From positions 7,341-71,340 of IMG/VR virus record IMGVR_UViG_3300020045_009568: a stretch of 64,000 nucleotides of DNA, one strand, 5' to 3'. Below, in pieces: positions 1,538-35,703 of the stretch (positions are counted from its first letter, which is position 1; every line of letters starts with the position of its first letter). The DNA comes from a virus (taxonomy: Duplodnaviria; Caudoviricetes). The position numbers and the translations under genes are program-made. Below the pieces are notes generated by a model. The model saw nothing but the letters and a program-made list of their open reading frames with translations, did no database searches and was not told the DNA's origin.

Positions 1538-1566
1538 GTCGCTCATAACTAACTTTTATGTTAAAC
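1538..1566 (+). other. dif/Xer-like site (E1 left)
   Basis: gtcgctcataa ctaactt ttatgttaaac versus E. coli dif ggtgcgcataa tgtata ttatgttaaat (8/11 and 10/11 arm matches, 7-bp spacer). Confidence 0.55.
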
Positions 1567-1688
1567 ACGGCGCACGGCCTACGTTTCATCGCTTAAGAGT
1601 AAAATGTATTTTTCTTTTTTTACCCTCGCTACATGCAATAGATTATGTAGGAGATTTTAGCGTAAATTGCAAATAACTAAAACAATCA

Positions 1689-1937
1689 ATGATGAAGTTC
1701 AATATTGGGCATAGCCTTAATCAAAACAAAGAAGAGTGGAATTTATTTAATGACTTTTTAGAAACTCTTTCAAGTGAATATGCGGATGAATTTAAAAAGG
1801 AAATGTACAGCAATGAAAGATTTATGGCGGTTGGCATAAGCGGGAAACCAGCAGACATAACATACGCATTCAATCCGAGCGTCCCGGATGAAATTCAACG
1901 TAAGATTGTAAGTAAACTAAAGGAGATTTTCCCTTAA
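1689..1937 (+). CDS. Small hypothetical cargo protein in E1 (82 aa)
   Basis: Intact ORF behind an A-rich leader and a gattttagcg-taaattgc motif shared with E2; opposite strand to the flanking phage genes. Confidence 0.7.
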   Translation: MMKFNIGHSLNQNKEEWNLFNDFLETLSSEYADEFKKEMYSNERFMAVGISGKPADITYAFNPSVPDEIQRKIVSKLKEIFP

Positions 1938-2096
1938 CTCAAGGGCATGTTTGAATGAATCTGTAGATTCAATAATTGAAATGAAATTTTCCTTGTCGTA
2001 AATAACTCCAACTCCATTTATATCAATCGTTACTTTATTTTCGGTAACGTCAATTTGTAGTTTTTTTTCGGAGACAATTTCTTTTTCGCTTGACAT
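1917..2096 (-). CDS. Possible second small cargo ORF in E1 (59 aa, MSSEKEIVSEKK...)
   Basis: Internal ATG of track ORF 1917..2381; protein-like composition; convergent with 1689..1937. Confidence 0.4.
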   Translation of the reverse strand: MSSEKEIVSEKKLQIDVTENKVTIDINGVGVIYDKENFISIIESTDSFKHALELRENLL

Positions 2097-2314
2097 GGGA
2101 TTTTTGTACTTTTTTTTATCATTGCGCAAAAACAAACCGTTCCGGTTTAAAGAGAGCCTCCGGCGCTTCAAAAAAGAAAAATACATTTCCCTCTTTCGCT
2201 CCGCCAACTGCACGGCGAAAAGTTTGAAAAAAAATATAACTTTTCGCTGCCACGCTTCTCCTTGCCCTACCCCTCCCACGTCACTTTGTTCGCCAACCCT
2301 GTTTTTCGGCGTGC

Positions 2315-2343
2315 CGCCAACATAATATTGAGTTATGATCAAC
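2315..2343 (-). other. dif/Xer-like site (E1 right, inverted)
   Basis: Reverse complement reads gttgatcataa ctcaata ttatgttggcg (cataa-N7-ttatgtt core). Confidence 0.45.
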
Positions 2344-2504
2344 GGACAGGTTATTCTTTTGTGGGTGGCTTTACAAGCCACGTGGGCAGCAGATTACTGC
2401 GATTATTTTTTCTTTTTTTGGTTGAATTTTGTTGTTAAAAATAATCGCAGGGCTTAAAAACCCTCTTAAAATTTGCTTTGCGCTAATGAAAAAGAACGAC
2501 CACG

Positions 2505-2523
2505 AAGTTATGTATTGTAACTT
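2505..2523. promoter_or_regulatory. AAGTTA-N7-TAACTT palindrome, copy 2
   Basis: aagtta tgtattg taactt between the E1 right IR and the integrase stop. Confidence 0.6.
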
Positions 2524-2540
2524 ACCAACCAAATATTATT

Positions 2541-4100
2541 TCAACCAGCCAGCGCAGCCGCAAAATCCTCCAACAGTTGTCCGTCAGTTAGGATGCGGAT
2601 ACCATCCTCAAATAAAGCGTCTTTTATGGACGCTTTATTTATTTCCAGCAAACCTAATTCTTTTAAAGTCAATGCTTTATCTGCAAAAAGTGGGTGTATT
2701 CCGGCAGTTGTCCAAATTCCATCAGAATAGTGACCATACCCGGACAAAACAACTTTTAAAAACAGTTGCTTGCGTATCAGGTCAAGTTCGTGAAATGATT
2801 TTTTAAGGGTGCCCAGCTTTGTTAAAACCTCATCCAGCTTGTAGTTCAGCGCCGTGGTATCTTTCGTTGCGTTCGCCAATTGTTCCTCCAAACCCGTTTC
2901 CTCCGCCCGTAGCTCATTCATTATTTTACTGTACACTAAAACATCAATATCAGGGTTTAAAAGGTACCTGCTTTGCGTGGTGGCAATCTTTGCCTTCACC
3001 TTGTCCATTTGCATCTTTAGCCGCATGATAACGCCACCTTTGTCCTTGCTGTGCTTTTCAATGGATTGGTTCAGGGCTTCCCGGATAGCCTGAATTGATT
3101 TTTCAGGTACCGCCAGCACATCCAGCATTTTATCCATGGATGCATGCACTTTGGCAGCGGAGAAGTTTTTACGGTGGGTATCACATTTGTAATACCAGTA
3201 AAACCGTGAGTAACCTTTGGACCGGCCAGCAGTCATTTTTCTGCCACACTCCGGGCAGATCATCCAGCCACGCAGATAAACATCCTCTGCAGGCTGGTGG
3301 CTGTTATTTTTGCCGTTTAATTTAACCTGAGCGGTGTAGTACTCTGATTTTGTAATAATGGGCTTATGGATTGCTTCTACTTCGTATCCGGGCTTTCCTT
3401 TATAAGCTGGCACCTGAATAATACCGGCATAGATACTCCGCTCCAAAATATCCCGGATTGCGGACCGGTTAGTTTGCGTAAATTCCGGAATCTTACGCTT
3501 TATTTCAAACATGGGTACGCCCTGGTTGAAGAGCTTGAAAATCTTTTTTACAATTTCTGCTTTGTGGGGGTCAATAACGATCATGGAGCTTTTACCCTGC
3601 CGGTTGTTGAGGTAGCCATACGGCGCTTTCCCAGTAAACCGTCCGCTGGCCAATGTCCGATACATGCCATCTTTGGTACGTTCCTGTATCCTGTTCCTTT
3701 CGTTGTTGGAGAATAGTAAATTTATGGTCCGCATCAGCTGCACGCCCAAATCCTTGTTGTTCTGGCCGACCGGATCTGTAACACTCAGGACCTTTACGCC
3801 CAGTTTATCTTCAATCTCATTGAGCTTCACCAGTGCATCCAGCAGGGTAGCCCGGGAAAACCGATCAATGTGGTAGATAACCAGCGCAAAAACCTTTTTA
3901 TTAGTTTTGATGTATTGCTCCAGCGCCTTCCATTCTGGCCGGTCAAAGGTAAAACCGCTCTTGCCGTTCTCTACAAATGCTTTTGCAATAGTTAATCCAT
4001 TGGCTTTGCAGTAGGCTTTCATTTGCTCATCCTGCATATCCAGGCTATTCGACTGGTCGGTTGTTGAAAGTCTGCTATAGGTAACTACCAGGCTGCTCAT
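2541..4100 (-). CDS. Large serine recombinase (phage integrase)
   Basis: N-terminal resolvase motif YSRLST and DRFSR, recombinase domain GRFTGKAPYGY, zinc ribbon CPECG...YYKC, coiled coil; 519 aa. Confidence 0.95.
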   Translation of the reverse strand: MSSLVVTYSRLSTTDQSNSLDMQDEQMKAYCKANGLTIAKAFVENGKSGFTFDRPEWKALEQYIKTNKKVFALVIYHIDRFSRATLLDALVKLNEIEDKLGVKVLSVTDPVGQNNKDLGVQLMRTINLLFSNNERNRIQERTKDGMYRTLASGRFTGKAPYGYLNNRQGKSSMIVIDPHKAEIVKKIFKLFNQGVPMFEIKRKIPEFTQTNRSAIRDILERSIYAGIIQVPAYKGKPGYEVEAIHKPIITKSEYYTAQVKLNGKNNSHQPAEDVYLRGWMICPECGRKMTAGRSKGYSRFYWYYKCDTHRKNFSAAKVHASMDKMLDVLAVPEKSIQAIREALNQSIEKHSKDKGGVIMRLKMQMDKVKAKIATTQSRYLLNPDIDVLVYSKIMNELRAEETGLEEQLANATKDTTALNYKLDEVLTKLGTLKKSFHELDLIRKQLFLKVVLSGYGHYSDGIWTTAGIHPLFADKALTLKELGLLEINKASIKDALFEDGIRILTDGQLLEDFAAALAG

Positions 4101-4103
4101 ACA

Positions 4104-4466
4104 CTACCATTTTGACATCGGCGCAATAATCAGCCTTGCCACCGATACAGAAACAATTAAGGTTAACATGCGAACTGCACCCAAAAAATCCCCATCGTTA
4201 ACATTCATAACCATTAACACTACCCCGAAAATTAACATGGCAGATTGCAGTATAATGCTACCTGTGATTTTATTTGGTGCAATTTTAACACCAGCCAGCA
4301 TATACAGCGCAGAACCAATGATCACATTCACGAAAGAAAAAACGTACATCCTGTTAAAGTCAAGTCGGACGCACACTTGAAAGAAAATATATACCCATAG
4401 TGAAAATACCGCTATCGCTGTCGGAAGAAACAAAACCCAGCGTATAGTCTTGGTTGTTATCCCCAT
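4104..4466 (-). CDS. Multi-pass membrane protein (possible superinfection exclusion)
   Basis: About four hydrophobic segments; lies between repressor and integrase, where immunity-region morons often sit. Confidence 0.65.
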   Translation of the reverse strand: MGITTKTIRWVLFLPTAIAVFSLWVYIFFQVCVRLDFNRMYVFSFVNVIIGSALYMLAGVKIAPNKITGSIILQSAMLIFGVVLMVMNVNDGDFLGAVRMLTLIVSVSVARLIIAPMSKW

Positions 4467-4603
4467 TCTGTTTAATGTTTATACGGGTTATAAGATTTAT
4501 TAATTAATATTTTGAATATTATATTTTAATCTCAGTATATTGCTAATCCCTATTTCTTTTACACCTTAACCGCTTACCATGCCGCCCAAAAAAACCAAGA
4601 AGC

Positions 4604-4969
4604 CTAAACTCCACCTGCAGCTTGTTTTGCAGCTAATTTCAAAATATTCTCTACCTCTAAAGATGCCTGCGAGAAAGAAACGCCGTAAATTTTAGCATGA
4701 TGTTCGGCGCATAGATTCTTCAACCCCCTCACCATCGCAACCAAGGCCGCTAATTCCAATCCGTTATCCGTATCATCTATCCCGTATAATTCTGAAAACT
4801 TTGTGTAAACTTCATGCGGCACGTTTCTACGCCCATTTATGATATTGCTAAACACGCTTTTCCCTACCTCTAAATTGTCTATTATCTCTGTAAAATTCTT
4901 CACTGCACCTTTATCTATCAGGGAATTTACCGCAGTTATAAATTTTTTTGTCTTTAAATTTTGTTCCAA
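4604..4969 (-). CDS. CI-like XRE helix-turn-helix repressor
   Basis: NFTEIIDNLEVGKSVFSNIINGRRNVP HTH pattern; divergent from a Cro-like gene, same orientation as the integrase. Confidence 0.8.
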   Translation of the reverse strand: MEQNLKTKKFITAVNSLIDKGAVKNFTEIIDNLEVGKSVFSNIINGRRNVPHEVYTKFSELYGIDDTDNGLELAALVAMVRGLKNLCAEHHAKIYGVSFSQASLEVENILKLAAKQAAGGV

Positions 4970-5074
4970 GGTATTGGTTTGTAATATGTTATAAAATTAC
5001 ACAAAATGCTGATAAAAAAAGTTGCCGGAAATGTTCCATTTAATTTGCAATTATGAAAACTTCTTGCTTACTTT

Positions 5075-5332
5075 GTGGAAACAAAACGAAAAAAGATGGT
5101 CGGTTTTGAACAAAAAGTCACCAACACCTTAGTATCACTTTCAAAACACTTTTCTAAAAATGATATAAAGGACGCCGCCTTGGTACTTAATATACACTAC
5201 AACACTATTGCAAAATATTTCAAAGGAAATGTTGCAAAAGTTGCGATAGCAATGAAAATCATAAACCATTTTTCAGGAATACTGGCTGAGAGAAAAAGGG
5301 ATTTAAAGAGAGCGGAAGCGCTTGCCGCATAG
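5075..5332 (+). CDS. Cro-like HTH regulator
   Basis: IKDAALVLNIHYNTIAKYFKG HTH pattern; small and basic; divergent from CI; TTACTTTG upstream contains a TAnnTTTG-like box. Confidence 0.7.
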   Translation: METKRKKMVGFEQKVTNTLVSLSKHFSKNDIKDAALVLNIHYNTIAKYFKGNVAKVAIAMKIINHFSGILAERKRDLKRAEALAA

Positions 5333-5541
5333 CATTCATCGGACGGAACTGCAATGCAATATAGTACAACTTTTTTAAACAATTGTAAACTTTTTGAATA
5401 TTAACAAAATTGAACACGTCGCTCCCGATACTGAACGATTTTGAACTTCTTCTGGCCAGCTTCATAGCCGAGGATTTAGGAATAGAAGAAGCGTTTTTAT
5501 CCGTACTAAATGATTGACAAAATTAACCCCAACAAAGCGTC

Positions 5542-6542
5542 ATGATTATAGTAAACTCCAAACAATCCCCAACAAAAAGCCTTGACAACTACGGTCATTG
5601 GCAATTAAGCACCTACGGTAATATAATCTGCAGTGCAGATAAACCCGCTCCGCTGCCAAGGGATCAGTTTGATGTTTGGTATAACAGAGAAGCGCAACTG
5701 GAAGAATTACGATTGCAAAATTAAACCCCCCTTTATACGATGGCTGCCAAATTAATCTACTTATTCAAAATGCTTTCAGCATTTGTTGTACTGGTGTTTA
5801 CTCTCCCTTATATAAATACCAATGAATCATTTTCAACAATAGACGAAGAAGAATAACCATGTTCATACAACCCGATAAAGAATACTGGCATGAGTGGCGT
5901 ATATGGTGGTACTCCAAAAGACTGGGCGAAGAAAAGAGGCCAGGTGCGATAAAGTTTTTGATGCAACAACTTAAAGGATTTTTAAACTAACATAATGAAG
6001 AAAATAACATTTCAAACAGCCATTCTTGCGATCTGCTACATAGCGCTGATGTGGATTTTTTGGCTCCCCGATACAATGACCTATACAGAACCACGGCACG
6101 AGAATGCAATGAAGTGCTGGTATGAGGTTTACGGGTATGCCTCAATCATAATTATTTTTTGTTGCGCTGGCGCATATATCTATCAGGCGGCCGGTAAACT
6201 TTACGACTACTTAAGAAAATAACATAATGGATTTAGGACAGGATATATGTATGGCTCTTTCAGCACTTGCGCTGGCTTTATTGATTGGTTTTTTTATCTG
6301 GCTGTTACGCCAGGCATTTAAAAATAACTAATGGGCATACTTGCTTTCATAGGCTTTTGTTCAATCGTTGGCACAGCAATGCTGCTAACACAAAAACACA
6401 GACAATGATATTAGGTACTATACGATTTGCTTTTATGTGGGTTGCTTTCCCTTTTGCCTTACTGGTAATGCTTTTTGCAATTCCGGTAGGAGCGTGGAGA
6501 TTTTTAACTCATAACGGCAATGGCTATAGTCCTTACAACTGA
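5542..6542 (+). CDS. String of small early ORFs, mostly hydrophobic micro-proteins
   Basis: ORFs 5542-5724, 5740-5856, 5995-6222, 6227-6331, 6331-6408, 6405-6542; the last three are joined by TAATG/ATGA stop-start overlaps. Confidence 0.6.
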
Positions 6543-6632
6543 CTTGCTAACCCAAGTTTTAGAGGGTCGTTTCGTAGGGTGGCGGTTACCGCCGTCACTC
6601 TTTTTAAAAAATGAAAAACCAATTCACTCAAC

Positions 6633-6926
6633 ATGAACAATATCAATTTCCCAAAGATCAAGGCAGCAGCCCTTGTCCTTCGCTCAGTCAATCACAAATT
6701 AAGACAGCAGATTTTAGAAGCCATCAATAAGAATGGCAACCGCATGTGTGTAACAGATATATACGTTGGCCTTCGTATCGAACAATCCGTGGCATCACAA
6801 CACCTGGCAATCTTAAGAAAGTCCGGAGTTATAGAGCCAGAAAAAAAAGATAAGAGAGTTTTCTATTCAGTGAATTTTAAAAGACTGAATGAGATCAATA
6901 ATAAAGCCACCGACCTGGTGGGTTAA
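6633..6926 (+). CDS. ArsR/SmtB-family transcriptional regulator
   Basis: LRSVNHKLRQQIL...VTDIYVGLRIEQSVASQHLAILRKSGVI...VFYSVN winged-HTH signature. Confidence 0.9.
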   Translation: MNNINFPKIKAAALVLRSVNHKLRQQILEAINKNGNRMCVTDIYVGLRIEQSVASQHLAILRKSGVIEPEKKDKRVFYSVNFKRLNEINNKATDLVG

Positions 6927-6976
6927 GAAATGAATAAAGCTGTCAAAAATATTCAATAAACAATCATTGACAGGGA

Positions 6977-7050
6977 TGGCAAGTAGCTCAGTTGGCTAGA
7001 GCGTTTGACGGTTAATCAGAAGGTCGCTGGTTCAAGCCCAGCCTTGCTAA
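6977..7050 (+). tRNA. tRNA-Asn(GTT) with G33; CCA not encoded
   Basis: Cloverleaf: acceptor TGGCAAG/CTTGCTA, D stem GCTC/GAGC, anticodon stem TTTGA/TCAGA with loop CGGTTAA, T arm GCTGG-TTCAAGC-CCAGC. Confidence 0.85.
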
Positions 7051-7069
7051 CAACGTCATACACAGAGAG

Positions 7070-7256
7070 AAGGATGGAATGCTAAGGTGAAAGTCCTTAG
7101 CTATGCGTCACCGGCTAAATCGGGTGATAATCGCAGCGTAACTGCCGAAGCTAATCAAAGGGAAGTGGAATTGCTGCCCATCCTTTGAAGGTGACCTGTA
7201 GCAAATTAAATCGCTGCATGTGGTGGCACATGCTACAGCCGGGTAAGACCGGCTTT
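7070..7256 (+). ncRNA. Unclassified structured RNA between tRNA and tmRNA
   Basis: aaggatgg/ccatcctt closing helix; gctaagg-tgaaagt-ccttagc, tcacc..ggtga, tgtagca/tgctaca, gcatgtg/cacatgc and agccgg-gtaaga-ccggct hairpins; no long ORF. Confidence 0.55.
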
Positions 7257-7285
7257 ATAAAGAAGTTCTTTGATCAAACATAAAT

Positions 7286-7347
7286 GATAGTTGCCTGACG
7301 GCTATTAGACGCTTATTCGGACGGGGGTTCGATACCTCCCACCTCCA
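7286..7347 (+). ncRNA. ssrA: tmRNA acceptor piece (standard 3' end) of a permuted ssrA
   Basis: ttcggac GGGGG TTCGATA CCTCC CACCTCC A: GGAC motif, T arm, 3' acceptor strand and discriminator A. The 5' boundary is approximate. Confidence 0.8.
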
Positions 7348-7505
7348 CAAGATTACACCTTGCCCAGTTTTGGTCCGCTGGCTTTTGCTGATTGAACCAT
7401 TAAGCGAAAGTTTAAAAAGATGAGAAGGTGTAATCTACTTTATTTGGCAGTTGCCATTTGAAAGCTAACCAGCCGCTTTAGTGCTGTTCAGCCTTCGGGC
7501 TGTTT

Positions 7506-7650
7506 GGGGGTGAATGGTTTTGACGGTAAGTAGTAGGTAGCAATAGACTATCAGTAACAAAACAAAAGGCAAAGTAATCGCCTTTGGTAAGCCGCAGCTT
7601 AGAGCAGCCGCCTAACCAACGAAACTGGCCCCCGCCGTAAAAGGGGGCTA
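7506..7650 (+). ncRNA. ssrA: tmRNA coding piece (standard 5' end plus tag ORF) of a permuted ssrA
   Basis: GGGGGTG AATGGTTTTGAC pairs with CACCTCC giving G3.U70; tag frame 7568-7615 GKVIAFGKPQLRAAA*; hairpin ggccccc..gggggct follows. The 3' boundary is approximate. Confidence 0.8.
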
Positions 7651-7853
7651 TTTTAAACTTTTTTTCTTGGCAGTGCAATCGTTTAACCCGGTGTTGTTTT
7701 TACATCTGCCGGCTATTTTAAAAAATTGTTTTGATCAACATAAAGAGAATGTTTTTCTATAGGAGGAAAAACAGTTTGTTCAACTAGGGCTGCGTTTCTA
7801 CGCTGGCCCGCTTATTAAGTCACTTATTTATTCATCATAAAAAACAAAGCACA

Positions 7854-7994
7854 ATGCGTAAAATGAAAGTGATCTACAAGGATCCAAAAGAAACAGGCGA
7901 AGAAGTTGCACAGGATGCAATTGGCCCCACAGCAAGTCCGGAAGAAAATGCTGGTGGCGTTGAAGCCCCTGCAAGCGAGGCCGAACAGGCTTAA
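7854..7994 (+). CDS. 46-aa acidic micro-protein (MRKMKVIYKDPKETGEEVAQD...)
   Basis: Manual translation; A-rich leader; same strand as neighbours. Confidence 0.5.
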   Translation: MRKMKVIYKDPKETGEEVAQDAIGPTASPEENAGGVEAPASEAEQA

Positions 7995-8067
7995 GTAAAA
8001 AGGAAGGTGCCAGAATATCCCCTGGCGCCTTCTCTTAAAAGAAATTTTTAAAATCAACAATATCATT

Positions 8068-8556
8068 ATGAGCGAAAATTTAACCCACTGGAAAGCATTT
8101 TTGAATTTAGACTACATGGGAGCATACAGCCTTACTCCCGGAGAAGAAAGGGTCGTTGAGATAGTTTCGGTTGGTCGTGAAATGGTGAAAGGATCCGATG
8201 GAAAAGAAAAGGAGTGCACCGTTGCAAAACTCAAAAACGAAAAGCCATTTATCCTGAACCGCACCAACTGTAAAACCCTTACTAAAATTTACAAAACACC
8301 ATACATCGAGCAGTGGGCAGGCAAGAAGATCATTGTCTACGCAGATAAGGTAAAAGCCTTTGGTGAAGAGGTGGAAGCGTTACGCATACGCCCAACAGAA
8401 CCACAGAAGCCAGACCTCAACCCTCAATCTCCCAAGTGGCCAGGTGCAATAAAAGCCCTTAAAGAAAAGACCGTTACAATGGATGCTATTGAGGCAAGCT
8501 ATGCGCTTACAAAAGAAAATAAGAAGCTGCTGCTGGCAGAAATGATTAAAGATTAA
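8068..8556 (+). CDS. Conserved phage protein, putative ssDNA-binding/annealing factor
   Basis: THWK...DYMGAYSL...KPFILNRTNCKTL...EQWAGKKI...EALRIRP pattern; sits next to an exonuclease. Confidence 0.55.
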   Translation: MSENLTHWKAFLNLDYMGAYSLTPGEERVVEIVSVGREMVKGSDGKEKECTVAKLKNEKPFILNRTNCKTLTKIYKTPYIEQWAGKKIIVYADKVKAFGEEVEALRIRPTEPQKPDLNPQSPKWPGAIKALKEKTVTMDAIEASYALTKENKKLLLAEMIKD

Positions 8557-8581
8557 AAAACAAAACCCCCAACAATATCTT

Positions 8582-9379: not shown

Positions 9380-9395
9380 CAACTAAAATTTTAAA

Positions 9396-10889: not shown

Positions 10890-11086
10890 ATATGTCAAAG
10901 CCCCGACCCTTTCATGCTAAGGGGCTTGTTTAAAAATGCCCACAATGATAAAGTCAATCATTAGAAGGTTCTTCTGCTACTCATGCCGGCAAGGGCAGAC
11001 GATGACCTTAAAGAAAACAGATACAGTGGCCGGATGGAAGTGTACAAAATGCAAACTCATAAATAATCAACCTGTTTAAAAAATCA

Positions 11087-25685: not shown

Positions 25686-25699
25686 TTGAATATTTTTTG

Positions 25700-25812
25700 T
25701 ATATTTGAAATGGATAAGCCTACGGGCTAGTCCATCAGGTCAAATGTTAAAGGACTGGGGTGTCCCCAATCGAATATGTTGACTTTACGCCGCCTGATCA
25801 GCGGCTTTTTTA
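25700..25812 (+). ncRNA. Candidate antisense small RNA
   Basis: TATATTTG box, then a hairpin with a TACG loop (agcc-tacg-ggct), a ggggtgtcccc hairpin and a gccgc..gcggc-T6 terminator; intergenic. Confidence 0.35.
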
Positions 25813-25835
25813 TTACCCCCAGTTATCATCTTTCA

Positions 25836-26300: not shown

Positions 26301-26312
26301 AATTATTTGTAA

Positions 26313-28952
26313 TTATTGATTTTCTGTTAATTCCATTGTTGAGCCTACCTGTATATATACAGGTTTAGCTGCCGTTAATGCAGCTGCTGCGAATATGAGC
26401 GTTAATGTTCCGGGCGTTGATGACGTTGTGATAAATACTGTTCCTTGTACCGCACCCTGTAGCCCTGTGGCACGATTAAGAGCAACAGCTCCACCTGCTG
26501 ACAAGCTACCCAAACCTGCCACCCTAACTATCTGCGGAGCGCCGTTGGAAGCATTTGAGCCGATGAGCGTACCGGATGCAAGTGCAGAACCGGATGGCCC
26601 GGATAATCCTAACCTGATACCTGTTGTTGTATCGCAACTGGTAAATAATGTAAATTCAATCTTATACTTTTTATTTGCACCTACTGATAGCGATAATCCG
26701 CTGTTTTTTGCAACCGTTATTACTGTTGTGTCTTGCGTTGAAAGTGTGACGGATGTAGGCAAGCTGCCACCACCTGAACTTTTCACCGCCTTTTTAATAT
26801 TCCCATCAACTCCAATAACAAGTGCGCTATCTGTTAATAATACCGTATTTCCTAACCCAACTAATTTTGCAACATTTGTATCGGGTGCTACTACATGAAG
26901 CCTTGCAGTAGGTGTTGTTGTTCCTATGCCTACCAAATTGTTGCTTCCAATATGCAGCGCTGGTTCGCCAAATCCAACCTCAAATGATGAATCTACCGTG
27001 TTATTAAAATTATGCCCTATAGCTGTTGATAAAACTCCGCTGGCTTCTGTTGTTTGCCCTATAGCTGTTGATAGATTTCCGCTTGCTATAGTTGATTCAC
27101 CAATGGCAATTGAGGCATATCCGCTTGCTGTTGCCTGATTCCCCATAGCTATTGAACCATACCCGTTAGTAGTATTATAGCTGCCAATCGCTGCGCTTGC
27201 ACCGCCATTTGCATTATTACTTATACCTACAGCAAATGAAGATTGCCCATTTGCATTGTTATTATCCCCAAATGAAACATTTGTATTAGTGCCAAGTTTC
27301 CCAATCGGATTATCATTCACCTTTAGTATTACTGGTTGATTATCGGTTGTCCCGAAATAATTAACACTCGAATCTGTCCCTGCTGTTCCTGTTAATCCCC
27401 ATGAAGCAGTACCACCACTAGCGCCACCCATCTTTATCCATGCAGAGCCATTATAAAAACAAAGTGCTGTACTATCTGTATTGTAAATAATTAACCCTGC
27501 CGCAGGAGAAGCGATGGCGTTCATCTGTACACCCGTCATGCGTGGTGGTAAAAATCCTTTGATTGTTGAACTTATATCAAGTGCAGCGGATGCGTTTGGC
27601 GAAGCAGTGCCTATTCCAAAGTTATTTACATTGATATAACCAGTAGAAGATGTGCCAAGATTGTCATACCTCAACTCCATTACCGGAGCGGTGCCGCCGT
27701 ATGTTTTATTCAATCTGAAATTTCCAGAGTAGCTATCAAAGTTTAAAAAATTACTCCCATTGTAGTAAATGCCAGTGTTAGGGTCACCCCATGATAATCT
27801 TTTATTAAGCGCAAGGATTAGCCCACCCGATGAGAATAATTCTTTTGTAGCTGGGTTTATCCTGAATGCAACACTGTCATTTGTAAGCACTCCATTTGCA
27901 TCAGGGAATGTAAGCCCATAGCTCTGCAGTTTAGCTATAAGTTTTACCGACAACACTGTGTCATCATGCACATCTACATAAGCCATCAGCAGCATGCCTG
28001 AATCCAATGATCGTGGGTAAGACTTAATGGTATCTTCAATACCCATCAGCGTATCAATAATCCCCAAAGAGGGTATTACAATAGCATCTGTTCGCCAATA
28101 GTCAGCCGTTGCCGGAGGAATTACTATTCTGATGTCAGTGGTGAATGTGTCCTGTATGCCAGCTAATCTGTAAATAATAGGGGCGTAAATGATAACTGTG
28201 TCACCTGAAATTGCAGCGCCGCCAGTGGAGAGGATTTCGTTGTCTTTTGAAAGCAGGTTGTTTGCAACCCGTATATCAATCCTTCTGCCTGGCGAATCAA
28301 TTAGCAAGACACTGCCATCGCCGGAAAACACCCCCACTTTTACCTTTGCAATACTATCATAGATGTAGGTAGTATCAAATGGAGTAGTGTTATCAATGTT
28401 CACACATTTTGCAGAGTTGTTATTCCACCAGCAATAGTTTGTGCCGCTTATGGTAATACTGTCGATAGCTGTTGAAACAATATCGCCTGTAATGGTGTAG
28501 CAGGTAGCCACCCCTGCAGTATAAAAACATAATTGCGTTCCGCCAACAACTTTTGCGCTGTCAATGCTATTGGCCAGTGTATAGCAGGTTGATGTATCAT
28601 GCTTCCAATAGCACAATGTTCGTGGTGCCGTAAAGGTTATACTGTCAATCCCTGTCGTGGTACCCTGCGGTACCGGTGTAACTACATAGGTTGCAAGCCT
28701 TATCCATCTGTTACCGGAATATACATACACCCCAGAATCAGCCGGGTTGTACCTTATTTGTCCAGTATCTCTTCCTCCAGGTATATTTCTAAGCGAAGAG
28801 ATACCAAGCGGGATAGATAAAACACCATTTCTATCCATCAAAAATCTTTTCACTGGACCATAGCCATTTTGAGGCATAGACTGATAAGCCCCCGGCTGTC
28901 CAAAGGAAGTGACAGCTGCAATCAAAAAGAGTACGGTTAATAGTTTTTTCAT
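26313..28952 (-). CDS. Tail-fibre/adhesin-like protein with signal peptide and YadA-head-like repeats
   Basis: TSFG|Q signal; Cys-paired repeats; GIGTASP motifs; ASGYASIAIG/ASGNLSTAIG/ASGVLSTAIG repeats. Confidence 0.7.
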   Translation of the reverse strand: MKKLLTVLFLIAAVTSFGQPGAYQSMPQNGYGPVKRFLMDRNGVLSIPLGISSLRNIPGGRDTGQIRYNPADSGVYVYSGNRWIRLATYVVTPVPQGTTTGIDSITFTAPRTLCYWKHDTSTCYTLANSIDSAKVVGGTQLCFYTAGVATCYTITGDIVSTAIDSITISGTNYCWWNNNSAKCVNIDNTTPFDTTYIYDSIAKVKVGVFSGDGSVLLIDSPGRRIDIRVANNLLSKDNEILSTGGAAISGDTVIIYAPIIYRLAGIQDTFTTDIRIVIPPATADYWRTDAIVIPSLGIIDTLMGIEDTIKSYPRSLDSGMLLMAYVDVHDDTVLSVKLIAKLQSYGLTFPDANGVLTNDSVAFRINPATKELFSSGGLILALNKRLSWGDPNTGIYYNGSNFLNFDSYSGNFRLNKTYGGTAPVMELRYDNLGTSSTGYINVNNFGIGTASPNASAALDISSTIKGFLPPRMTGVQMNAIASPAAGLIIYNTDSTALCFYNGSAWIKMGGASGGTASWGLTGTAGTDSSVNYFGTTDNQPVILKVNDNPIGKLGTNTNVSFGDNNNANGQSSFAVGISNNANGGASAAIGSYNTTNGYGSIAMGNQATASGYASIAIGESTIASGNLSTAIGQTTEASGVLSTAIGHNFNNTVDSSFEVGFGEPALHIGSNNLVGIGTTTPTARLHVVAPDTNVAKLVGLGNTVLLTDSALVIGVDGNIKKAVKSSGGGSLPTSVTLSTQDTTVITVAKNSGLSLSVGANKKYKIEFTLFTSCDTTTGIRLGLSGPSGSALASGTLIGSNASNGAPQIVRVAGLGSLSAGGAVALNRATGLQGAVQGTVFITTSSTPGTLTLIFAAAALTAAKPVYIQVGSTMELTENQ

Positions 28953-30121
28953 GAGTATGTGAATATGAATAATTCACCAACAGTTGCGCTGTTTACAATT
29001 GTGCTGGCTACAACATCGCCTGTTGGTAAGAATATTTGATTGTTTACAATTTGAAGCTGTTCTGTATCTGTTGTTGGGCTGGTTGTAATGCCTTTACCCA
29101 ATCCGCTTCTTACAGCAGCTTTAATAGTTTTGCCGGCCAGTGCAGGAATAATAAAACTGCTTACGCCTGGAGTTGGCCTGAACTGGTAATGCTGATCCGT
29201 ACTTCCGCCACAACCTGTAGCAAAATCGTATGCAGGAATCATTGCGCCATTTTTAGGATAAGCCAGCGGCGCTCCGTCATGGGTAAGTTTATAGAATTCC
29301 TCAAAATAATCTTTGAGGTTGGTAGTCTGTTTTACACAAACCTTGCCCCTGATTAATTGATAAAGTGCTGCAGCTTTTTCATATAAAGCTTGCATGGAAT
29401 TGTTGCCACAACTTGCCGTTGTTTTTTTCTTTAATTGCTCCAGATAAGCAACCAGTGCGCTCATTGGTAGTGGCGCATAGGCTTGGGCGATATCCTGCCA
29501 TGAGAATAACTGCAGGATAGACAACCATGGATCGGTTTCGCTTTCATACAAAACATCTTTGGTGTACCGGGTATCATATTTTGAAGCGTAATACCCGCCT
29601 TCAAAAATTGCGTCCAGGTTTGGTGTAATTGATTGAACGTAATTCATGCCGTCCATATAGCTTACCCACGCAGAATTTTGCTCTTTAATAGCCCATCCTT
29701 CAACGGTATAATTGGTATTATCAGCAAATTTTATTTCAGGAGTGTAGAAGTCGTAAATAGGTTGGATGCTGAGTTTTACCGGGTCGTACTGCATGCCAAA
29801 ATCCCTTGTAAAATACCCATCGGTATAATCAGGATGCCTTGCAAAAAATTCAATGATGTAGCCACCTTTTACATATAACCCATCTTGCCCTGTTCTTAAA
29901 ACAACATTGATTGTTTGCTTGCCATTTTCAGCCCATGTAACATCAGGATTTCCAAAGCTTGTCTTTGTTTCAATTCCATCAGGCTGCACAACAGAGAAGT
30001 AGCCAATAAGGTCGGGCTGTAAGTTTACCGGTATAGTAGTTTTTGCCGTCAGTTGCAACACCGGGTTTTCGCTTAAAATAAACTTTGCATCAAACGATAT
30101 GAAAGAAGTTAATGACGGCAT
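28949..30121 (-). CDS. Hypothetical virion-region protein (390 aa)
   Basis: Long intact ORF in the late operon. Confidence 0.65.
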   Translation of the reverse strand: MPSLTSFISFDAKFILSENPVLQLTAKTTIPVNLQPDLIGYFSVVQPDGIETKTSFGNPDVTWAENGKQTINVVLRTGQDGLYVKGGYIIEFFARHPDYTDGYFTRDFGMQYDPVKLSIQPIYDFYTPEIKFADNTNYTVEGWAIKEQNSAWVSYMDGMNYVQSITPNLDAIFEGGYYASKYDTRYTKDVLYESETDPWLSILQLFSWQDIAQAYAPLPMSALVAYLEQLKKKTTASCGNNSMQALYEKAAALYQLIRGKVCVKQTTNLKDYFEEFYKLTHDGAPLAYPKNGAMIPAYDFATGCGGSTDQHYQFRPTPGVSSFIIPALAGKTIKAAVRSGLGKGITTSPTTDTEQLQIVNNQIFLPTGDVVASTIVNSATVGELFIFTYS

Positions 30122-30227
30122 TTTGTTTGTTTTTTAAAGTGTGCCACCTGTAAAAACAGGTGGCCTTTATATCCCTGCAAACAAAGCACAACACTATTGA
30201 TGTTGCACCGTTTTCAGGCGGTTTATC

Positions 30228-31136
30228 TTAAGCCTCCTTGCCAGCCTTTGCTTTTTCCTTTGTATCGGGTTTAGGGGCTATGAGGTTTTTCATTTGCTTA
30301 GTAATTGCTTCACCATTCTTGCTGGTGTCAAGCCATTCTGCGAACTGCTGTACTGGCGCAACACCTTCTACACGGTCAAGGGTGGCGATAGTTTCTTGCG
30401 ACACCACCCATAAGTACTGATGTGTTTGAGCATTGTACTGAACGTGGCCTTTTTCAATCGCCTGCTTTACAACAGATTTGAGTGGCGTAATAGGGCTGTT
30501 CACCATTTTATCAAACCATACAGGATCTTTTTCTGCCAATTCCTGTAACTTATCCGTTACCACATCCGGATCATCATCAAAGCCGCCGCCGTTCGCCGCA
30601 TGCAATAGTCTTCTTTCTGTCATATCCAAAAGGTCTATGTATTCATACATAGTCTGTTTGGTTTTACGCCTGGCTACATTCATTTTAGACAAATAAGTTT
30701 CATCCACTCTTTCAAACAAAGGATTCACTGATGCGTCACGGTAAGGATTGCTTGCATTTTCATTCAGCAATTCAATAACCTGGTAAATCTCTTCTTCATC
30801 CATAATGCCTTCATGTAGCACAAAAACACCCCTGTTTGTATCGGGAATATTCAGTACACCATAAGCCTCCACGCTGTCCTTGCCCATTATTTTAACATGA
30901 GCAACTTCCACTGGCTGTTTTGTTCCAGGGTCTTTCAGCCTTGCCCTTAAAATGATCTGCGTAATGGACGGGAATGAATAATCATCTTTCCCTATAATCG
31001 CTTTTGGATCAATGTTTTTGGTGCCATTAAGCATCCTGTATTTCACATTCCCCTTAATTGGCCTCTCATCAAGGTACTTTTTAAGGGCATCTGAAATTTT
31101 GTTTACGTTGTGGTCTTTAAATGTTTGCAGAGCCAT
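30228..31136 (-). CDS. Hypothetical protein downstream of the capsid gene
   Basis: Intact 302-aa ORF; position typical of capsid-associated genes. Confidence 0.6.
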   Translation of the reverse strand: MALQTFKDHNVNKISDALKKYLDERPIKGNVKYRMLNGTKNIDPKAIIGKDDYSFPSITQIILRARLKDPGTKQPVEVAHVKIMGKDSVEAYGVLNIPDTNRGVFVLHEGIMDEEEIYQVIELLNENASNPYRDASVNPLFERVDETYLSKMNVARRKTKQTMYEYIDLLDMTERRLLHAANGGGFDDDPDVVTDKLQELAEKDPVWFDKMVNSPITPLKSVVKQAIEKGHVQYNAQTHQYLWVVSQETIATLDRVEGVAPVQQFAEWLDTSKNGEAITKQMKNLIAPKPDTKEKAKAGKEA

Positions 31137-31162
31137 AAAAAATGTTTGTAGTTATTAAAATA

Positions 31163-31186
31163 GCAGGTGGCTTTTACACCACCTGC
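31163..31186 (-). terminator. Intrinsic terminator after the major capsid gene
   Basis: gcaggtgg/ccacctgc stem followed by TATTTT on the minus strand. Confidence 0.65.
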
Positions 31187-31204
31187 CTATTGTCTTATTC
31201 TCAA

Positions 31205-32536
31205 TTAGGCGAGAGCCCTTTGTTTGCTGAACTGTTTTGTGCCAGCCATTTCGTTACCGAAATTGCACAACCAGTGACGGGTTAAAGTAGCCTCGTCATT
31301 GGTAGCTTTCTGTGCCATTGCACCAGTTTCCCATTCTGCAATCCAGTTTGCGCCGGCTTCCGGAATACCATGCTTCATATACCTTACCTGGATGCGTGGT
31401 ACCACACCGTTACCGATAGTGTTCACGTTACCTTTAGGAATACCATAAATGGATTTACCGATTGTGCCAACACCAGCACCGAACTTTTGCGGGTGATCAA
31501 GGATAGGCAAGTTGCCATACTCAAAAGTGTATGAACCGTGGGTGATCTTATCAACGTTGTAGTTGAAGGCGGTTATTTCATTTGCTCCAAAATTCAAATG
31601 TGCGCTTGTTACACCTGAGCTACCAAGATTTTTTGCAAATGTGCTGACAGCCCTACGAGCCGAATCAGGACAAAGTTTCAAGAAATTCTTTGGTGCTTTT
31701 ACGGCGTTTAATGCATCACACTCGTTGTTAAGGTCAGCGAATACCAGTGTGCCATTGGTTGTCCATGCTAAAGCTTGGCCTTTGGTTGCAACTTCCTGGT
31801 CAATACCGCCTGTGAACTGGGTTGGTTTACCCTGGCCGTCTACCAATGGAGAAGCATCACCGTACTGTGTAGCTGATTTCTGCTGGCCAATCAAAGCTGC
31901 AGAGATATCACCCTGGAATGCCTGCGCTTTCTTTACAGCCTGGTAGCTGGAGAACAACTTAGTGCCATTCACTTCAACGGTTACATAAGATTGTTTCTGC
32001 ACATCGGTTACAACGTCCTTAGTCCTTAACCTTGTAAGCAGGTTGAAATCCCTGTTCACTGTATAGGTAAGGTTTTGAACTCCTGTTGAACCTTCGCCGG
32101 CACTGGTACCAAGATCAATCATCTTTCCGCCCTGGGTAGCTGTAAGGTTGGTGCCGTCACAACTTTTTACGGTGAAAGAATCTTTTGAACTGGAAGTGGT
32201 GATGGCGCTGGAAATGAATCCGCACTTATCATTAGGGAACTTCAACACCATATTGGTCCTTGCATAGCCTGAGCTTGCAACATCCAGGGTAATGGTCAGC
32301 GTTGCTGTACCGCTACCTGAAACACCACCAGTGTCGATTGTTAATACTTTGTACAGGTCTTCATCAGTAAACTGATGATACTGGCTCATTACTGTTTCTT
32401 TTTTCAACCCGGCCAAAGCCATAAGGTCTGTGTACTGCATTTCATTGGACACATCAATGATTTCCGGACGGATCACCCTTTCATCAAGGAAGTCCACGCC
32501 GGTTACTACCTGCTTATTTAAATCGGTACGTTGCAT
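31205..32536 (-). CDS. Major capsid protein (probable HK97 fold)
   Basis: 443 aa, follows a scaffold-like gene and precedes a terminator; position in the TerL-portal-scaffold-capsid series. Confidence 0.7.
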   Translation of the reverse strand: MQRTDLNKQVVTGVDFLDERVIRPEIIDVSNEMQYTDLMALAGLKKETVMSQYHQFTDEDLYKVLTIDTGGVSGSGTATLTITLDVASSGYARTNMVLKFPNDKCGFISSAITTSSSKDSFTVKSCDGTNLTATQGGKMIDLGTSAGEGSTGVQNLTYTVNRDFNLLTRLRTKDVVTDVQKQSYVTVEVNGTKLFSSYQAVKKAQAFQGDISAALIGQQKSATQYGDASPLVDGQGKPTQFTGGIDQEVATKGQALAWTTNGTLVFADLNNECDALNAVKAPKNFLKLCPDSARRAVSTFAKNLGSSGVTSAHLNFGANEITAFNYNVDKITHGSYTFEYGNLPILDHPQKFGAGVGTIGKSIYGIPKGNVNTIGNGVVPRIQVRYMKHGIPEAGANWIAEWETGAMAQKATNDEATLTRHWLCNFGNEMAGTKQFSKQRALA

Positions 32537-32564
32537 GATTTTTTTAGTTTAAATAGTTTACGAA

Positions 32565-33686
32565 TCACCCACCGAACAATTCAGCATGACTAACCAGCTT
32601 GCCTTCTGTAGCAAGTACTGTTTTGCCATTTATCTGCCCGTTCTCTGGATTAATAACTTGTTGGCCCGGCACAACATTTCTTACCTCTTTGTTAAATGCG
32701 GCTTCGGCTTTTGCTTTTACGTGGGCAAACATTGCCTTTTCAATTGCCTGCTGATTTCTGTGATAGGTGAGTGTTTTTGCCAGTTGTGTTATTTCTGGAT
32801 CGGATAAAGGTTTACCTGACTGCATGCTGGCTGAAACCACTTCACTCACAATGCCATCAAAATCTTTTACTTCAAACTGGAGGGCATCTTCGCCTTCGCC
32901 GTAAGTAAGCATTTTGGTTGCCTGTAAGCTTTTAACCGCTGCGCTGTTGCGCACTGCCTCGGTTATTTGTTGCTGCATAGCTTCCCGTTCCTGGCCTTTG
33001 GTATCGGGTGCTGCTGCAGGTGCTTTCAATCCTGCCTGTTTATCGAGGTATTTTTGCCGTATTGCGGCGGAATCCTGTTTGAGTAAAAATTCCCCATATT
33101 TAGCATCATCGCTTCCTTCGGGGGCTTCATCTCTGTCAAGATTATATTTTGCGAGTTCTCTCTTAAGAACTATCTGTAATGTTTGGGGATCAATACCTGG
33201 ATTTTTCTCTTTGATATCCAGCTCCAGCAATTGCAATTCGCTCATGTTGCCAAAGTCCGTACCCGTAAGACGCAGGTATTCGTTCTTGTTACCACCACCT
33301 GCTATAAACTCTGCATACTTTACAATTTCAGGATCTATCTTATCCATTGAGGCGATAAGATGATCAGGAACGCCCAGCGTTTTAAGCAATGTAGGCTTAT
33401 CAAATTTTGAAAGTCCGTGTGTTAATATTTCTTCCTGTGATGCACTTTCATACCATGGCTTTGCTGGTTCTGCTGCTGCCGGAGCCGCAGGTGCTGCCGG
33501 TTCATTTGGCGCAGCGGCATTTGGTTGTGCTGGTTCGTTTGGTGAGGATGGAGGTGGAGTGTCTGCCGCAGGAGCAGGAATAGCCGAAGCCATTTCAGCC
33601 TGCATTTGGTCATAAGATAAAACGCCACCACCGGTATCACCAGTGGCTGCGTCATAGAAATAGGGTACGGATTGAACTGTTTTCAT
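32565..33686 (-). CDS. Capsid scaffolding-like protein
   Basis: Pro/Ala-rich N-terminal linker, acidic helical body, directly upstream of the capsid gene. Confidence 0.55.
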   Translation of the reverse strand: MKTVQSVPYFYDAATGDTGGGVLSYDQMQAEMASAIPAPAADTPPPSSPNEPAQPNAAAPNEPAAPAAPAAAEPAKPWYESASQEEILTHGLSKFDKPTLLKTLGVPDHLIASMDKIDPEIVKYAEFIAGGGNKNEYLRLTGTDFGNMSELQLLELDIKEKNPGIDPQTLQIVLKRELAKYNLDRDEAPEGSDDAKYGEFLLKQDSAAIRQKYLDKQAGLKAPAAAPDTKGQEREAMQQQITEAVRNSAAVKSLQATKMLTYGEGEDALQFEVKDFDGIVSEVVSASMQSGKPLSDPEITQLAKTLTYHRNQQAIEKAMFAHVKAKAEAAFNKEVRNVVPGQQVINPENGQINGKTVLATEGKLVSHAELFGG

Positions 33687-33744
33687 CGTATTGCTGTTTG
33701 AGGGAGGATTATTTAAAAATATATTCGTCAGGTATTACCCTGCA

Positions 33745-34242
33745 TTATACCCACTGTGCGTACAAAACTGTATTTGCTATAATCGGATTGATCGCTGCAC
33801 CTACTGCATACGCTGTTCCTGAACCATCAGCTGCTGTATTCCATTCGCTGAATGTTTTGGTTGATTTTACAAGCGTTCCAGCTGCTACGGTTACAGGAGT
33901 AGACCACTTATCGTAAGGGCTACTTGCATCTGTTGGAGCAGAGCCACCTGTATTGGTGTTGCCATTGTACGTCAATGTGTACGTTCCCATTGATTCATAC
34001 AACTGTGGTAGTTGCTCTGCCCTGCAGGAGTTTACCGGCTGCCCGTCTTTTTTGATCAGGTAGTCAGTATCGTGCAACACTGCCACTTCACCATTTGCCA
34101 ACCGGATATTTACTACCCTGTCATTGACCGTGGATTCCGATTTAATAAGGCTTACACGAGCCCCCTCGAAAATGCCACTGGTTGTATTACCATCGGTAAA
34201 TTGAATTACCTCATACTGCTGAATTTTTGCATACTTTGCCAT
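33745..34242 (-). CDS. Fusion of a small phage domain and an InlB B-repeat/Flg_new domain
   Basis: C-terminal YTLTYNGNTNTGG...FSEWNTAADGSGTAY...TVLYAQW is a Listeria-Bacteroides repeat; the N-terminus resembles the EAVQF..GDYIIK..CKPDIF..TYE phage family. Confidence 0.75.
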   Translation of the reverse strand: MAKYAKIQQYEVIQFTDGNTTSGIFEGARVSLIKSESTVNDRVVNIRLANGEVAVLHDTDYLIKKDGQPVNSCRAEQLPQLYESMGTYTLTYNGNTNTGGSAPTDASSPYDKWSTPVTVAAGTLVKSTKTFSEWNTAADGSGTAYAVGAAINPIIANTVLYAQWV

Positions 34243-34250
34243 GATGTTCT

Positions 34251-34269
34251 AAGTTATATTATATAACTT
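34251..34269. promoter_or_regulatory. AAGTTA-N7-TAACTT palindrome, copy 3
   Basis: aagtta tattata taactt directly downstream of minus-strand TACTTTTG with an upstream TTTG. Confidence 0.7.
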
Positions 34270-34454
34270 CAAAAGTAGCACTTGTTTTGAATAATCAAAA
34301 AAATATTTGTGCGGACATGGGACCGGCAACAATCGAGTAGCAGCTATAGCCAGGCAGCGGTAATAGTCATTGATCTTTTGGGAAGTGTGTCAGTTCTTTT
34401 TATCTATGCGTTTGAATTTCTTTTGGCTTAAAAATAGGCTGCAAGGAATTGCCC

Positions 34455-34483
34455 TTTACCTATAACTAATTTTTATGTTAAGC
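34455..34483 (+). other. dif/Xer-like site (E2 left)
   Basis: tttacctataa ctaattt ttatgttaagc (9/11 match to the XerD arm). Confidence 0.5.
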
Positions 34484-34656
34484 AGGCGCACACGCCTTCC
34501 CGTTATGAGTGAAGTGTATTGTATTTTTTTTCTCCCGCCCTGCTGCGAGTATTAGTAGCCCGGATAGATTTTAGCGAGTAAATTTTGGAGTAATTAAAAA
34601 AAGTGTAGTTTTGAAATAGAAAAACGGAGCTGCGAACTCCGTTCCTCTTCTTAATC

Positions 34657-34758
34657 TTAAAGCAGTAATAGCTTAAGGATTTCGACAATAGACTTGACAA
34701 TCAGCATAATGCTGACGACTTTTCCCAGTTTGTCGCTGGGCAATTTACCAGTTCTCAT
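34657..34758 (-). CDS. 33-aa hydrophobic peptide, type I toxin-like
   Basis: MRTGKLPSDKLGKVVSIMLIVKSIVEILKLLLL*, by manual translation. Confidence 0.4.
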   Translation of the reverse strand: MRTGKLPSDKLGKVVSIMLIVKSIVEILKLLLL

Positions 34759-34765
34759 AAGGATG

Positions 34766-34798
34766 AAAGTTGACTGTTTTGACAGTCAACTTTTTTTT
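34766..34798 (+). terminator. Strong intrinsic terminator inside E2
   Basis: aaagttgactgt-tttg-acagtcaacttt perfect 12-bp stem plus T run. Confidence 0.75.
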
Positions 34799-34969
34799 CG
34801 AGCAAGCGTCCATGTTTGCAGGGATACTTCTTTCGTTCCAAATGATTCGCAGATTGAACCTGTCAGGTTATCCATACAAATATATCACATTACATCATGC
34901 AAATCCTTTGCTGTCCGCACTGGAGTATTAACCCATTGAGTAGATTGTGTTATTAGATTAATTTATAAA

Positions 34970-35470
34970 TTGTGTGGAATTAAAACAACTGATATGGAAA
35001 AGGAAATGACAATTTCTGACAAGCTGCATTCAGATGCAGCCATGACAAGAGGGATTATTATAAATGAAGTTGCTCACCTTGAAAAAATGATTGACGCATT
35101 TTTGTCAATGTACTTCGTGCAGGTCGGAAAGCAAACTACATTTTACTTAGTTTTTTTATCTCAAATGCAGCTTACCAAGAAAGTCAACATTTTTAAAGAC
35201 ACCGTTAGCTCTTACAAGAATGATTTTGTAAAAAACAATCCAACCTATAGCGTTGATCTTGGCAAAATAATAGAGCAAAGGAATTTGCTTGCACATGAAA
35301 TAATAGACCTTTCAAAGGGAGGGTTTTTGAAATATTCCAAAGGGTATGTGCAGTTTGACAATTTCAAAAAGAAAAGAAAGGTAACCGCATTCGGCAAGAC
35401 AGATGTAAAAAACCTTATAGCATTAATTCAGAAATATACTATAGCTGTTACTGAATTACTTAGCAAGTAA
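34970..35470 (+). CDS. HEPN-motif protein (MtlR-like HEPN, predicted RNase), cargo of E2
   Basis: Helical protein with RNLLAH (Rx4H) after LEKMI...F...KKVNIF; opposite strand to the late operon. Confidence 0.65.
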   Translation: MCGIKTTDMEKEMTISDKLHSDAAMTRGIIINEVAHLEKMIDAFLSMYFVQVGKQTTFYLVFLSQMQLTKKVNIFKDTVSSYKNDFVKNNPTYSVDLGKIIEQRNLLAHEIIDLSKGGFLKYSKGYVQFDNFKKKRKVTAFGKTDVKNLIALIQKYTIAVTELLSK

Positions 35471-35673
35471 AGTTTGGGCACCGGAATCCCCTTTCAGATT
35501 GGTACGTTAGCTACCGTACTTCATCGTCTTAAAGGGAACTCCATCGAGTTTATAATAATTTGTGTAGAAGGAAACGCCTTGCGGCGTAAAGAGGGCTCCG
35601 CATCTCAAAAAAAATACAATACACTTCCCTCATAGCCTTGCTGCCCCTCCCACATCGCTTCGCTAGCTAACCT

Positions 35674-35703
35674 GAATAACATAATATTGAAGTTATAGGC
35701 GAA
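35674..35703 (-). other. dif/Xer-like site (E2 right, inverted)
   Basis: Reverse complement reads ttcgcctataa cttcaata ttatgttattc (8-bp spacer). Confidence 0.45.

Follow-up and report, generated by a model that had tools for sequence, protein, structure and literature searches.

Inverted dif-like sites in a tailed phage belong with cassette sites stacked beside dif in Chitinophagaceae

Can gene cassettes inside a tailed phage be bounded by sites for the XerC/XerD recombinases of its bacterial host? The question is raised by two cassettes, here called E1 and E2, in a 64,000-nucleotide (nt) stretch of a virus of the Caudoviricetes (Duplodnaviria; IMG/VR virus record IMGVR_UViG_3300020045_009568). 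This whole stretch, called the window below, covers positions 7341-71340 of a record of 71,340 bases that CheckV rates as complete. The original prediction, made from the letters of the DNA alone, held that each cassette contains an inverted pair of dif-like sites and that host XerC/XerD may exchange, invert or capture the cassettes. A search for the core ATAACT-N4-8-TTATGTT returned four occurrences in the window and four in the whole 71.3-kilobase (kb) record, against a chance expectation of 0.03 (100 shuffles, none of which reached four). The cores, at 1545-1562 (+), 2319-2336 (-), 34462-34479 (+) and 35678-35696 (-), bear out the four predicted positions and alternate in orientation along the window, one inverted pair per cassette. 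The scores of 8/11 and 10/11 per arm that had been given against the dif of Escherichia coli hold for the first site, and the absence of a tyrosine recombinase, claimed for the window, is true of the whole phage record.

Each site consists of an inverted YATAA/TTATG pair within arms of ~11 base pairs (bp) with conserved inner bases. The left site of E1 (1538-1566, +) has an XerC-type arm (1538-1548), a 7-nt spacer (1549-1555) and an XerD-type arm (1556-1566); its inverted partner on the right (2315-2343, -) has its 7-nt spacer at 2326-2332. In E2 the left site lies at 34455-34483 (+; 7-nt spacer 34466-34472) and the right site at 35674-35703 (-; 8-nt spacer 35685-35692), and in both cassettes the XerD-type arms face the cargo. 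The two left sites are alike and so are the two right ones, which defines two classes, L and R, with spacers ending in TT and TA, respectively. Predicted dif sites of Bacteroidetes have the arms YATAA and TTATGT(T/A/C)AAAT around a 6-bp spacer (PMC3025954 supplement), and the arms of the phage sites fit them. This layout suggests Xer-type core recombination sites, each with a central region between an XerC-type and an XerD-type arm. Readings of the sites as serine-invertase sites, an RNA processing stem or a promoter were tried and dropped. A lone dif-like sequence with a 6-nt spacer, inside a coding sequence at 63337-63357 (+), is probably a chance occurrence.

Where else do such sites occur? 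An L-class 20-mer, scanned exactly against 185,579 species genomes, matched 38 contigs, ~31 of them from Chitinophagaceae or close kin in the Bacteroidota (genera Sediminibacterium, Ferruginibacter, Lacibacter and Chitinophaga), mostly with one site per genome. The few matches outside the phylum were solitary, with no partner site. The host arrays follow a fixed order: a canonical site, an inner arm, 0.4-2.3 kb of cargo, a second inner arm, an inverted R site, ~150 bp with a hairpin, and an L site oriented like the canonical one. At 27 host loci an R site lies ~150 bp from L, the two XerC arms turned towards each other, and at 23 a canonical dif with a 6-bp spacer (TTAATA or TTTATA) is found 0.4-2.3 kb away in the orientation of L. 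Several loci held two or three units in tandem, and throughout the arrays the sites bound cassettes in alternating orientation.

Is the canonical site the dif of these bacteria? Its 19-mer was present exactly once in 187 of 301 sampled Chitinophagaceae genomes; a reversed control pattern was found in 1 of the 301. In a complete 4.47-megabase (Mb) Sediminibacterium chromosome, the sign of the guanine-cytosine skew changes between ~1.4 and 1.8 Mb and the cumulative skew forms a plateau at 1.63-1.79 Mb, and a cluster of four sites (1,682,596-1,683,480) lies on this terminus plateau. We conclude that the canonical site is the dif of Chitinophagaceae and that L and R are dif-derived sites of small elements stacked at dif. 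The two classes mark a family of small, recombinase-less cassettes in Chitinophagaceae that stack beside the canonical dif. Agreement with the host dif had been set beforehand as a test of the prediction; the arms fit the Chitinophagaceae dif, so the prediction was not refuted here.

Sites and cargo both connect the phage to these arrays. The XerD arm of the E1 L site matches the host dif arm at 10/11 positions and host variants ending in C at 11/11; for the two L sites together, the XerD arms score 10/11 and 9/11 against the host-family dif and 11/11 and 10/11 against host variants. Host chromosomes have the same R-class spacer as E1. Relative to a Chitinophagales chromosomal array (L174), the E2 L site is 100% identical over 25 nt and the E2 R site 94-97% identical over 33 nt. 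The E2 cargo, a HEPN-like protein (34994-35470, +), is 47% identical over 131 residues to cargo lying between like sites in the same L174 dif array, and this homologue has a weak HEPN_RiboL-PSP match. Another viral contig (L125) and a Sediminibacterium contig have arms that are 88-99% identical. The portal-like protein has distant homologues (29-33% identity) in 2 of the 301 Chitinophagaceae genomes. We hold with high confidence that the four sites belong to the Xer family and are linked to the dif cassette system of the host, and Chitinophagaceae are the likely host family of the phage.

Which recombinase could act on these sites? In five host genomes, no tyrosine recombinase gene was found within 100 kb of the arrays, and no IntI integrase gene adjoins the arrays, either in the host arrays examined or in the phage record. 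Each of the five genomes has two high-scoring tyrosine recombinases in open frames of ~300-350 residues, the size of XerC/XerD, among three to eight tyrosine recombinase matches per genome. That surplus of matches, together with spacers of 7-8 nt compared with 6 in canonical dif, would suit a dedicated integron-type tyrosine recombinase, encoded elsewhere in the host, that favours central regions of 7-8 nt and simply targets DNA near dif. We consider such an enzyme improbable: none is encoded within the 100 kb around the five arrays or in the phage, the arms are those of dif, and the integrated order is the one predicted for exchange with dif itself.

How could exchange with dif produce that order? 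All 31 distinct host units of the form R-hairpin-L fold as one long hairpin, with a mean z of -10 relative to shuffles (fold energies were computed with RNA parameters as a proxy). In the folded units, R and L pair XerD arm to XerD arm and XerC arm to XerC arm, and in most of them pairing extends to exactly two spacer bases, those beside the XerC arm, and leaves the remaining five as a bubble. This dinucleotide varies between unit families and matches within partners (CT/CT, GG/GG, AA/AA), while the L-type and R-type ends of the spacers stay constant. These patterns suggest that folding brings R and L together as a duplex Xer site. If L and dif then exchanged once at the XerD border, and replication completed the process, the order seen at dif would result; we infer exchange at this border because the spacer stays with its XerC arm at both junctions. 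The single strand of E1 folds like the host units, but with ~0.75 kb between its two sites.

In the phage, both site pairs sit inside long fold-backs composed of outer repeats, the sites, inner repeats of 26-28 nt and a hairpin in the right arm only. The outer repeats are perfect over 49 nt in E1 and 46 nt in E2. The left outer arm of E1 (1465-1524) pairs with the right outer arm (2386-2500) in two blocks, 1465-1513 perfectly with 2452-2500 and 1514-1524 with 2386-2396, and the right arm also includes an arm-specific hairpin (hp, 2397-2450) whose motif is found between R and L in host chromosomes as well. Inside the sites lie an inner left arm (1567-1669; inner repeat 1595-1620), which is kept with the frame in relatives, and an inner right arm (2124-2314; inner repeat 2170-2195) with an intrinsic terminator on the minus strand (2133-2149). 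The E1 cargo between them (1670-2123) has open reading frames at 1689-1937 (+, 82 residues) and 1917-2096 (-, 59 residues) of no known family; exact look-ups of both proteins found nothing on record, and a 31-mer from this cargo had no match in metagenome or viral contigs. The left outer inverted repeat of E2 (34386-34431, 46 nt), which is 100% conserved in a related contig (L236), has its perfect partner at 35805-35850; this partner and a hairpin at 35756-35808 make up the right arm of E2 (35756-35850). DNA searches with both cassettes against the phage collection gave no match.

Both cassettes are placed in intergenic gaps of phage operons. To the right of E2 lies a remnant (35932-35986) in which a half site, made of an XerC-type arm and spacer (35932-35942), is fused to a truncated hairpin (35940-35986). 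The phage holds two units of the family and what is left of a third. Pfam named few of the cargo proteins (RhuM, a PBECR3 nuclease and a weak HEPN match), and PADLOC returned nothing for ten of them; the cargo genes may be accessory or defence-type and may be expressed from the cassette. A short motif, TCGCAA/TTGCGA with an A/T run, is found repeatedly, in hairpin stems (host units L178 and L180), at the centre of an empty phage frame (L243:925-945) and at the right cargo boundary of E1 (2124-2136), and it may be a second recognition element.

Could repeats of this kind act on RNA or transcription instead, as RNase III-type processing stems or as bidirectional insulators round foreign genes, with the dif-like cores incidental? 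The stem of the intrinsic terminator in the E1 inner right arm has compensatory changes in L130, a relative of the phage with a GroEL 79% identical and an E1 frame upstream of GroES, and cargo lies between or opposite to phage operons; both observations agree with such a role. The core, however, is conserved across unrelated contexts while the outer arms vary, and it co-localises with chromosomal dif. A left flank of ~100 nt is common to both cassettes (1366-1464 and 34298-34385) and to L130, with a tiny open reading frame in E1 and L130 that is absent from E2; it folded no better than shuffles and showed no significant RNA fold, and Rfam found nothing inside or beside the cassettes. We therefore regard an RNA or transcriptional role as very unlikely to account for the repeats.

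A further candidate agent lies next to E1. A gene for a large serine recombinase with Resolvase, Recombinase and zinc-ribbon domains (2541-4100, -), an identity that the original prediction had missed, lies 40 bp to the right of the cassette, and the 46-49-bp outer repeats are as long as serine-integrase attachment sites. This enzyme might invert or move the cassettes through the outer repeats or the dif-like sites. In L130, however, the E1 frame is present and none of the genes called next to it encodes an integrase, E2 is 31 kb away from the gene, and the same sites occur in host arrays and in other viral contigs. In addition, the layout of 5-bp inverted arms, a 7-nt spacer and dif arms is of the tyrosine-recombinase type, and no strand-changing joint was listed among metagenome contigs aligned to window positions 1-6000. 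We give this explanation hardly any weight, and the gene is probably unrelated to the cassettes. No relatives of the enzyme were found in the viral contigs searched; a related prophage has a tyrosine integrase in its place, adjoining the host trmD. A transposon with terminal repeats was also rejected: there is no transposase, and the arms are common to host dif units.

Does the cargo change while the frame is kept? In L130, the E1 frame encloses 4.7 kb of cargo encoding an IS1595 transposase, an EcoRI-like methylase and GmrSD. The L130 arms align with those of the window at 72-75% identity overall, cargo edges included, and the longest identical runs of these alignments are the two E1 sites themselves, 27 nt each, one across the L-site core (window 1541-1565) and the other at the R site (2317-2343). 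Identity of this kind fits selection on the sites. The outer repeat of L130 is 47 nt long with one mismatch; either gene conversion or selection could keep such repeats perfect. In a contig from wastewater, the arms match window 1484-1669 and 2124-2481 at ~99% identity and enclose 456 other bases. In one run (X1), two cargo contig pieces of 151 nt each are identical to the window and backbone pieces are 92.6-96.5% identical, and identical E1 cargo pieces are also present in two runs without other matching contigs over window 1-6000. Stretches of window 1-6000 that no contig covered were given no weight, and minor shares of the query words in other metagenomes were not read as a sign of habitat.

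The frames recur in other phages. The XerD arms face inward in 9/9 L/R pairs on viral contigs, as they do in the window; five of these pairs are empty frames with ~95 nt between the arms, and all nine pairs, like several phage lineages, preserve the arms and the partner dinucleotides. One viral contig frame (L249:2534-2560) has a left site with a 6-nt spacer, TGTATA. In a first, loose pattern scan of viral contigs, since set aside, none of the matches listed resembled cassette arms. Three relatives (L229, L231 and L236) carry a complete extra cassette of the GG type between E2 and a gene of 775 residues, where the window has its remnant; the E2 region has one hybrid cassette in L233 and none in L234. 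The loop of the hairpin adjoining the 775-residue gene is inverted in L236 (2540-2600) compared with the window (35940-35986) or L229 (7350-7405). The deletion junction of the remnant falls at the border of spacer and XerD arm and has a 5-nt microhomology, and with that microhomology present we dropped the junction as evidence of Xer action.

These comparisons bear on whether the sites are active at all. Pieces of host dif arrays might have entered the phage by illegitimate or homologous recombination and persist as relics, with idle sites, repeats kept by gene conversion and cargo turned over by recombination in the inner arms. This explanation fits a break point in the phage unit that coincides with no site, cargo boundaries internal to the sites, degenerate XerD arms in the R sites and, at the one deletion junction at a site, a 5-nt microhomology that would suffice by itself. 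Idle sites would sit poorly, however, with the 27-nt identical runs that make the sites better conserved than any other part of the frame in diverged phages, and with arms and partner dinucleotides kept in several lineages, five empty frames included. On balance we think it rather unlikely that the cassettes are relics.

Do host XerC and XerD act on the phage sites? We put the probability that they do at roughly 0.6, and our confidence that Xer is the agent that swaps cargo inside the phage is lower. If host XerC/XerD bind the sites, cassettes may pass between host dif arrays and phage frames. Several observations weigh against this reading. The spacers of 7, 7, 7 and 8 nt depart from the 6-bp central region, and the XerD arms of the R sites match the host-family dif weakly (7/11 and 8/11). 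Matched partners lie across the hairpin in host units but across the cargo in phages, 0.75-1.2 kb apart in the window, and because of this folding in a double-stranded DNA phage would need long single strands or cruciforms. The order of parts in the phage units is that of the host units circularly permuted, broken where the hairpin meets the outer arm, and one Xer exchange at L or R would yield neither the phage order nor the entry of a frame into the phage. The E1 arms of L130 resemble those of the window on both sides of each site, and no inverted cassette was seen.

Nor do the ends of the replaced E1 cargo fall in the spacers, where the original prediction had proposed to look for breakpoints. 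Relatives do differ in cargo within the same frame, but in the ~99%-identical frames the replaced part is bounded by 1669/1670 and 2123/2124, which lie 115-200 bp in from the sites. By analogy with attC sites within one integron array, such ends would also be expected if the cassettes of a pool share near-identical attachment arms. Overall, the original prediction finds partial support, from the dif-family sites, the host L/R arrays at dif and the differing cargo within one frame, but so far none for inversion of a cassette or for an Xer route by which frames entered the phage. Site identity, host context, folding, shared cargo, cargo turnover and the conservation of the sites in phage lineages are established.

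How does this arrangement compare with known Xer-dependent systems? The dif (pdif) modules on Rep_3 plasmids and chromosomes of Acinetobacter (PMC13141974, PMC11705084, PMC12907356) are likewise gene modules bounded by inversely oriented XerC/XerD-type sites, with modules whose XerD arms face inward alternating with modules whose XerC arms do. They too have no recombinase of their own, carry accessory, toxin or defence-type cargo, and have sites that also occur near chromosomal dif. Here, by contrast, the bacteria are Bacteroidota and the modules are carried both by the chromosome and by a tailed temperate phage; spacers are of 7-8 nt instead of 6, the sites are differentiated into two classes, each site lies within conserved inverted-repeat arms of 100-250 bp with a hairpin, and exchange at the sites is a proposal.

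Integrative mobile elements exploiting Xer (IMEX) of the CTX-phi type in Vibrio cholerae use an attP(+) folded from two inverted dif-like sites (PMC3442271; cited in PMC3091885), in which the central region is paired next to one arm only (PMC3442271), as in the folded host units. The host-chromosome units resemble these elements further in lying at dif, in direct orientation and in tandem, with a regenerated dif and no integrase; the phage copies are not at a dif. The 0.4-2.5-kb cassettes differ from IMEX in lacking replication and capsid genes, in junctions that fit exchange at the XerD border instead of the XerC border, and, in the phage, in partners that enclose cargo and in the lack of a known single-stranded stage (the phage is a 71-kb tailed phage). 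Microviridae proviruses of Bacteroidetes (PMC3091885) belong to the same phylum, lack a recombinase and have dif-like flanks, some with an extra inverted copy, but they are whole 6-kb single-stranded DNA viruses in the chromosome and not cassettes in a double-stranded DNA phage.

The likeness to integrons (IntI, attI, attC) lies in cassettes with unrelated cargo genes that are stacked at one chromosomal site, and in an imperfect palindrome at each cassette end that folds and combines conserved boxes with a variable stem. Unlike in integrons, no IntI gene stands beside the array, the docking site is dif itself, and crossover would take place in the middle of the palindrome and not at its edge. 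Each of the systems likened to this one has a defining feature that it lacks, be it the 6-bp spacer, the plasmid context, the single-stranded virus or IntI. Full-text literature searches turned up no account of cassettes linked to dif in Chitinophagaceae, nor of modules of this kind in tailed phages.

Several other features of the phage stand apart from the cassettes. It encodes a GroEL of its own (523 residues; 3-1333, -, and L129:6851-8422) with an adjoining GroES-like gene, and the close relatives of this GroEL are on metagenomic phage contigs only. It also encodes a tRNA-Asn (6977-7051, +) and a circularly permuted transfer-messenger RNA (7286-7615, +; Rfam RF04321, 58.6 bits). Several start codons are closely preceded by the palindrome AAGTTA-N7-TAACTT (1341-1359, 34251-34269, 40963-40988 and 60000-60043), of which a degenerate copy is also present on the right flank of each cassette (2506-2524 and 35851-35868); the motif may be a phage promoter or operator.

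To our knowledge, few cassette platforms use the chromosome-unlinking enzymes of the host, namely, filamentous phages and islands of Vibrio and Neisseria and plasmid modules of Acinetobacter. The cassettes described here extend the same logic to another phylum, with small cassettes stacked at chromosomal dif and inside tailed phages that have site classes and cargo in common. For Chitinophagaceae, they also provide a concrete consensus of dif and a marker of the terminus. If Xer acts on the sites, phages would carry a pool of defence- or toxin-type cassettes that needs no integrase of its own, and a living example would be at hand for testing whether integron-like systems arose from Xer/dif. 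A wider proposal, which we put forward tentatively and think more likely wrong than right, is that an integron-like network for gene capture, run by housekeeping XerC/XerD, is common to Chitinophagaceae and their temperate phages; in it, recombinase-less cassettes would dock at dif through the folded L/R hairpin and phage frames, some of them empty, would receive and export cassettes. If so, phages would be vehicles for an Xer-dependent cassette pool.

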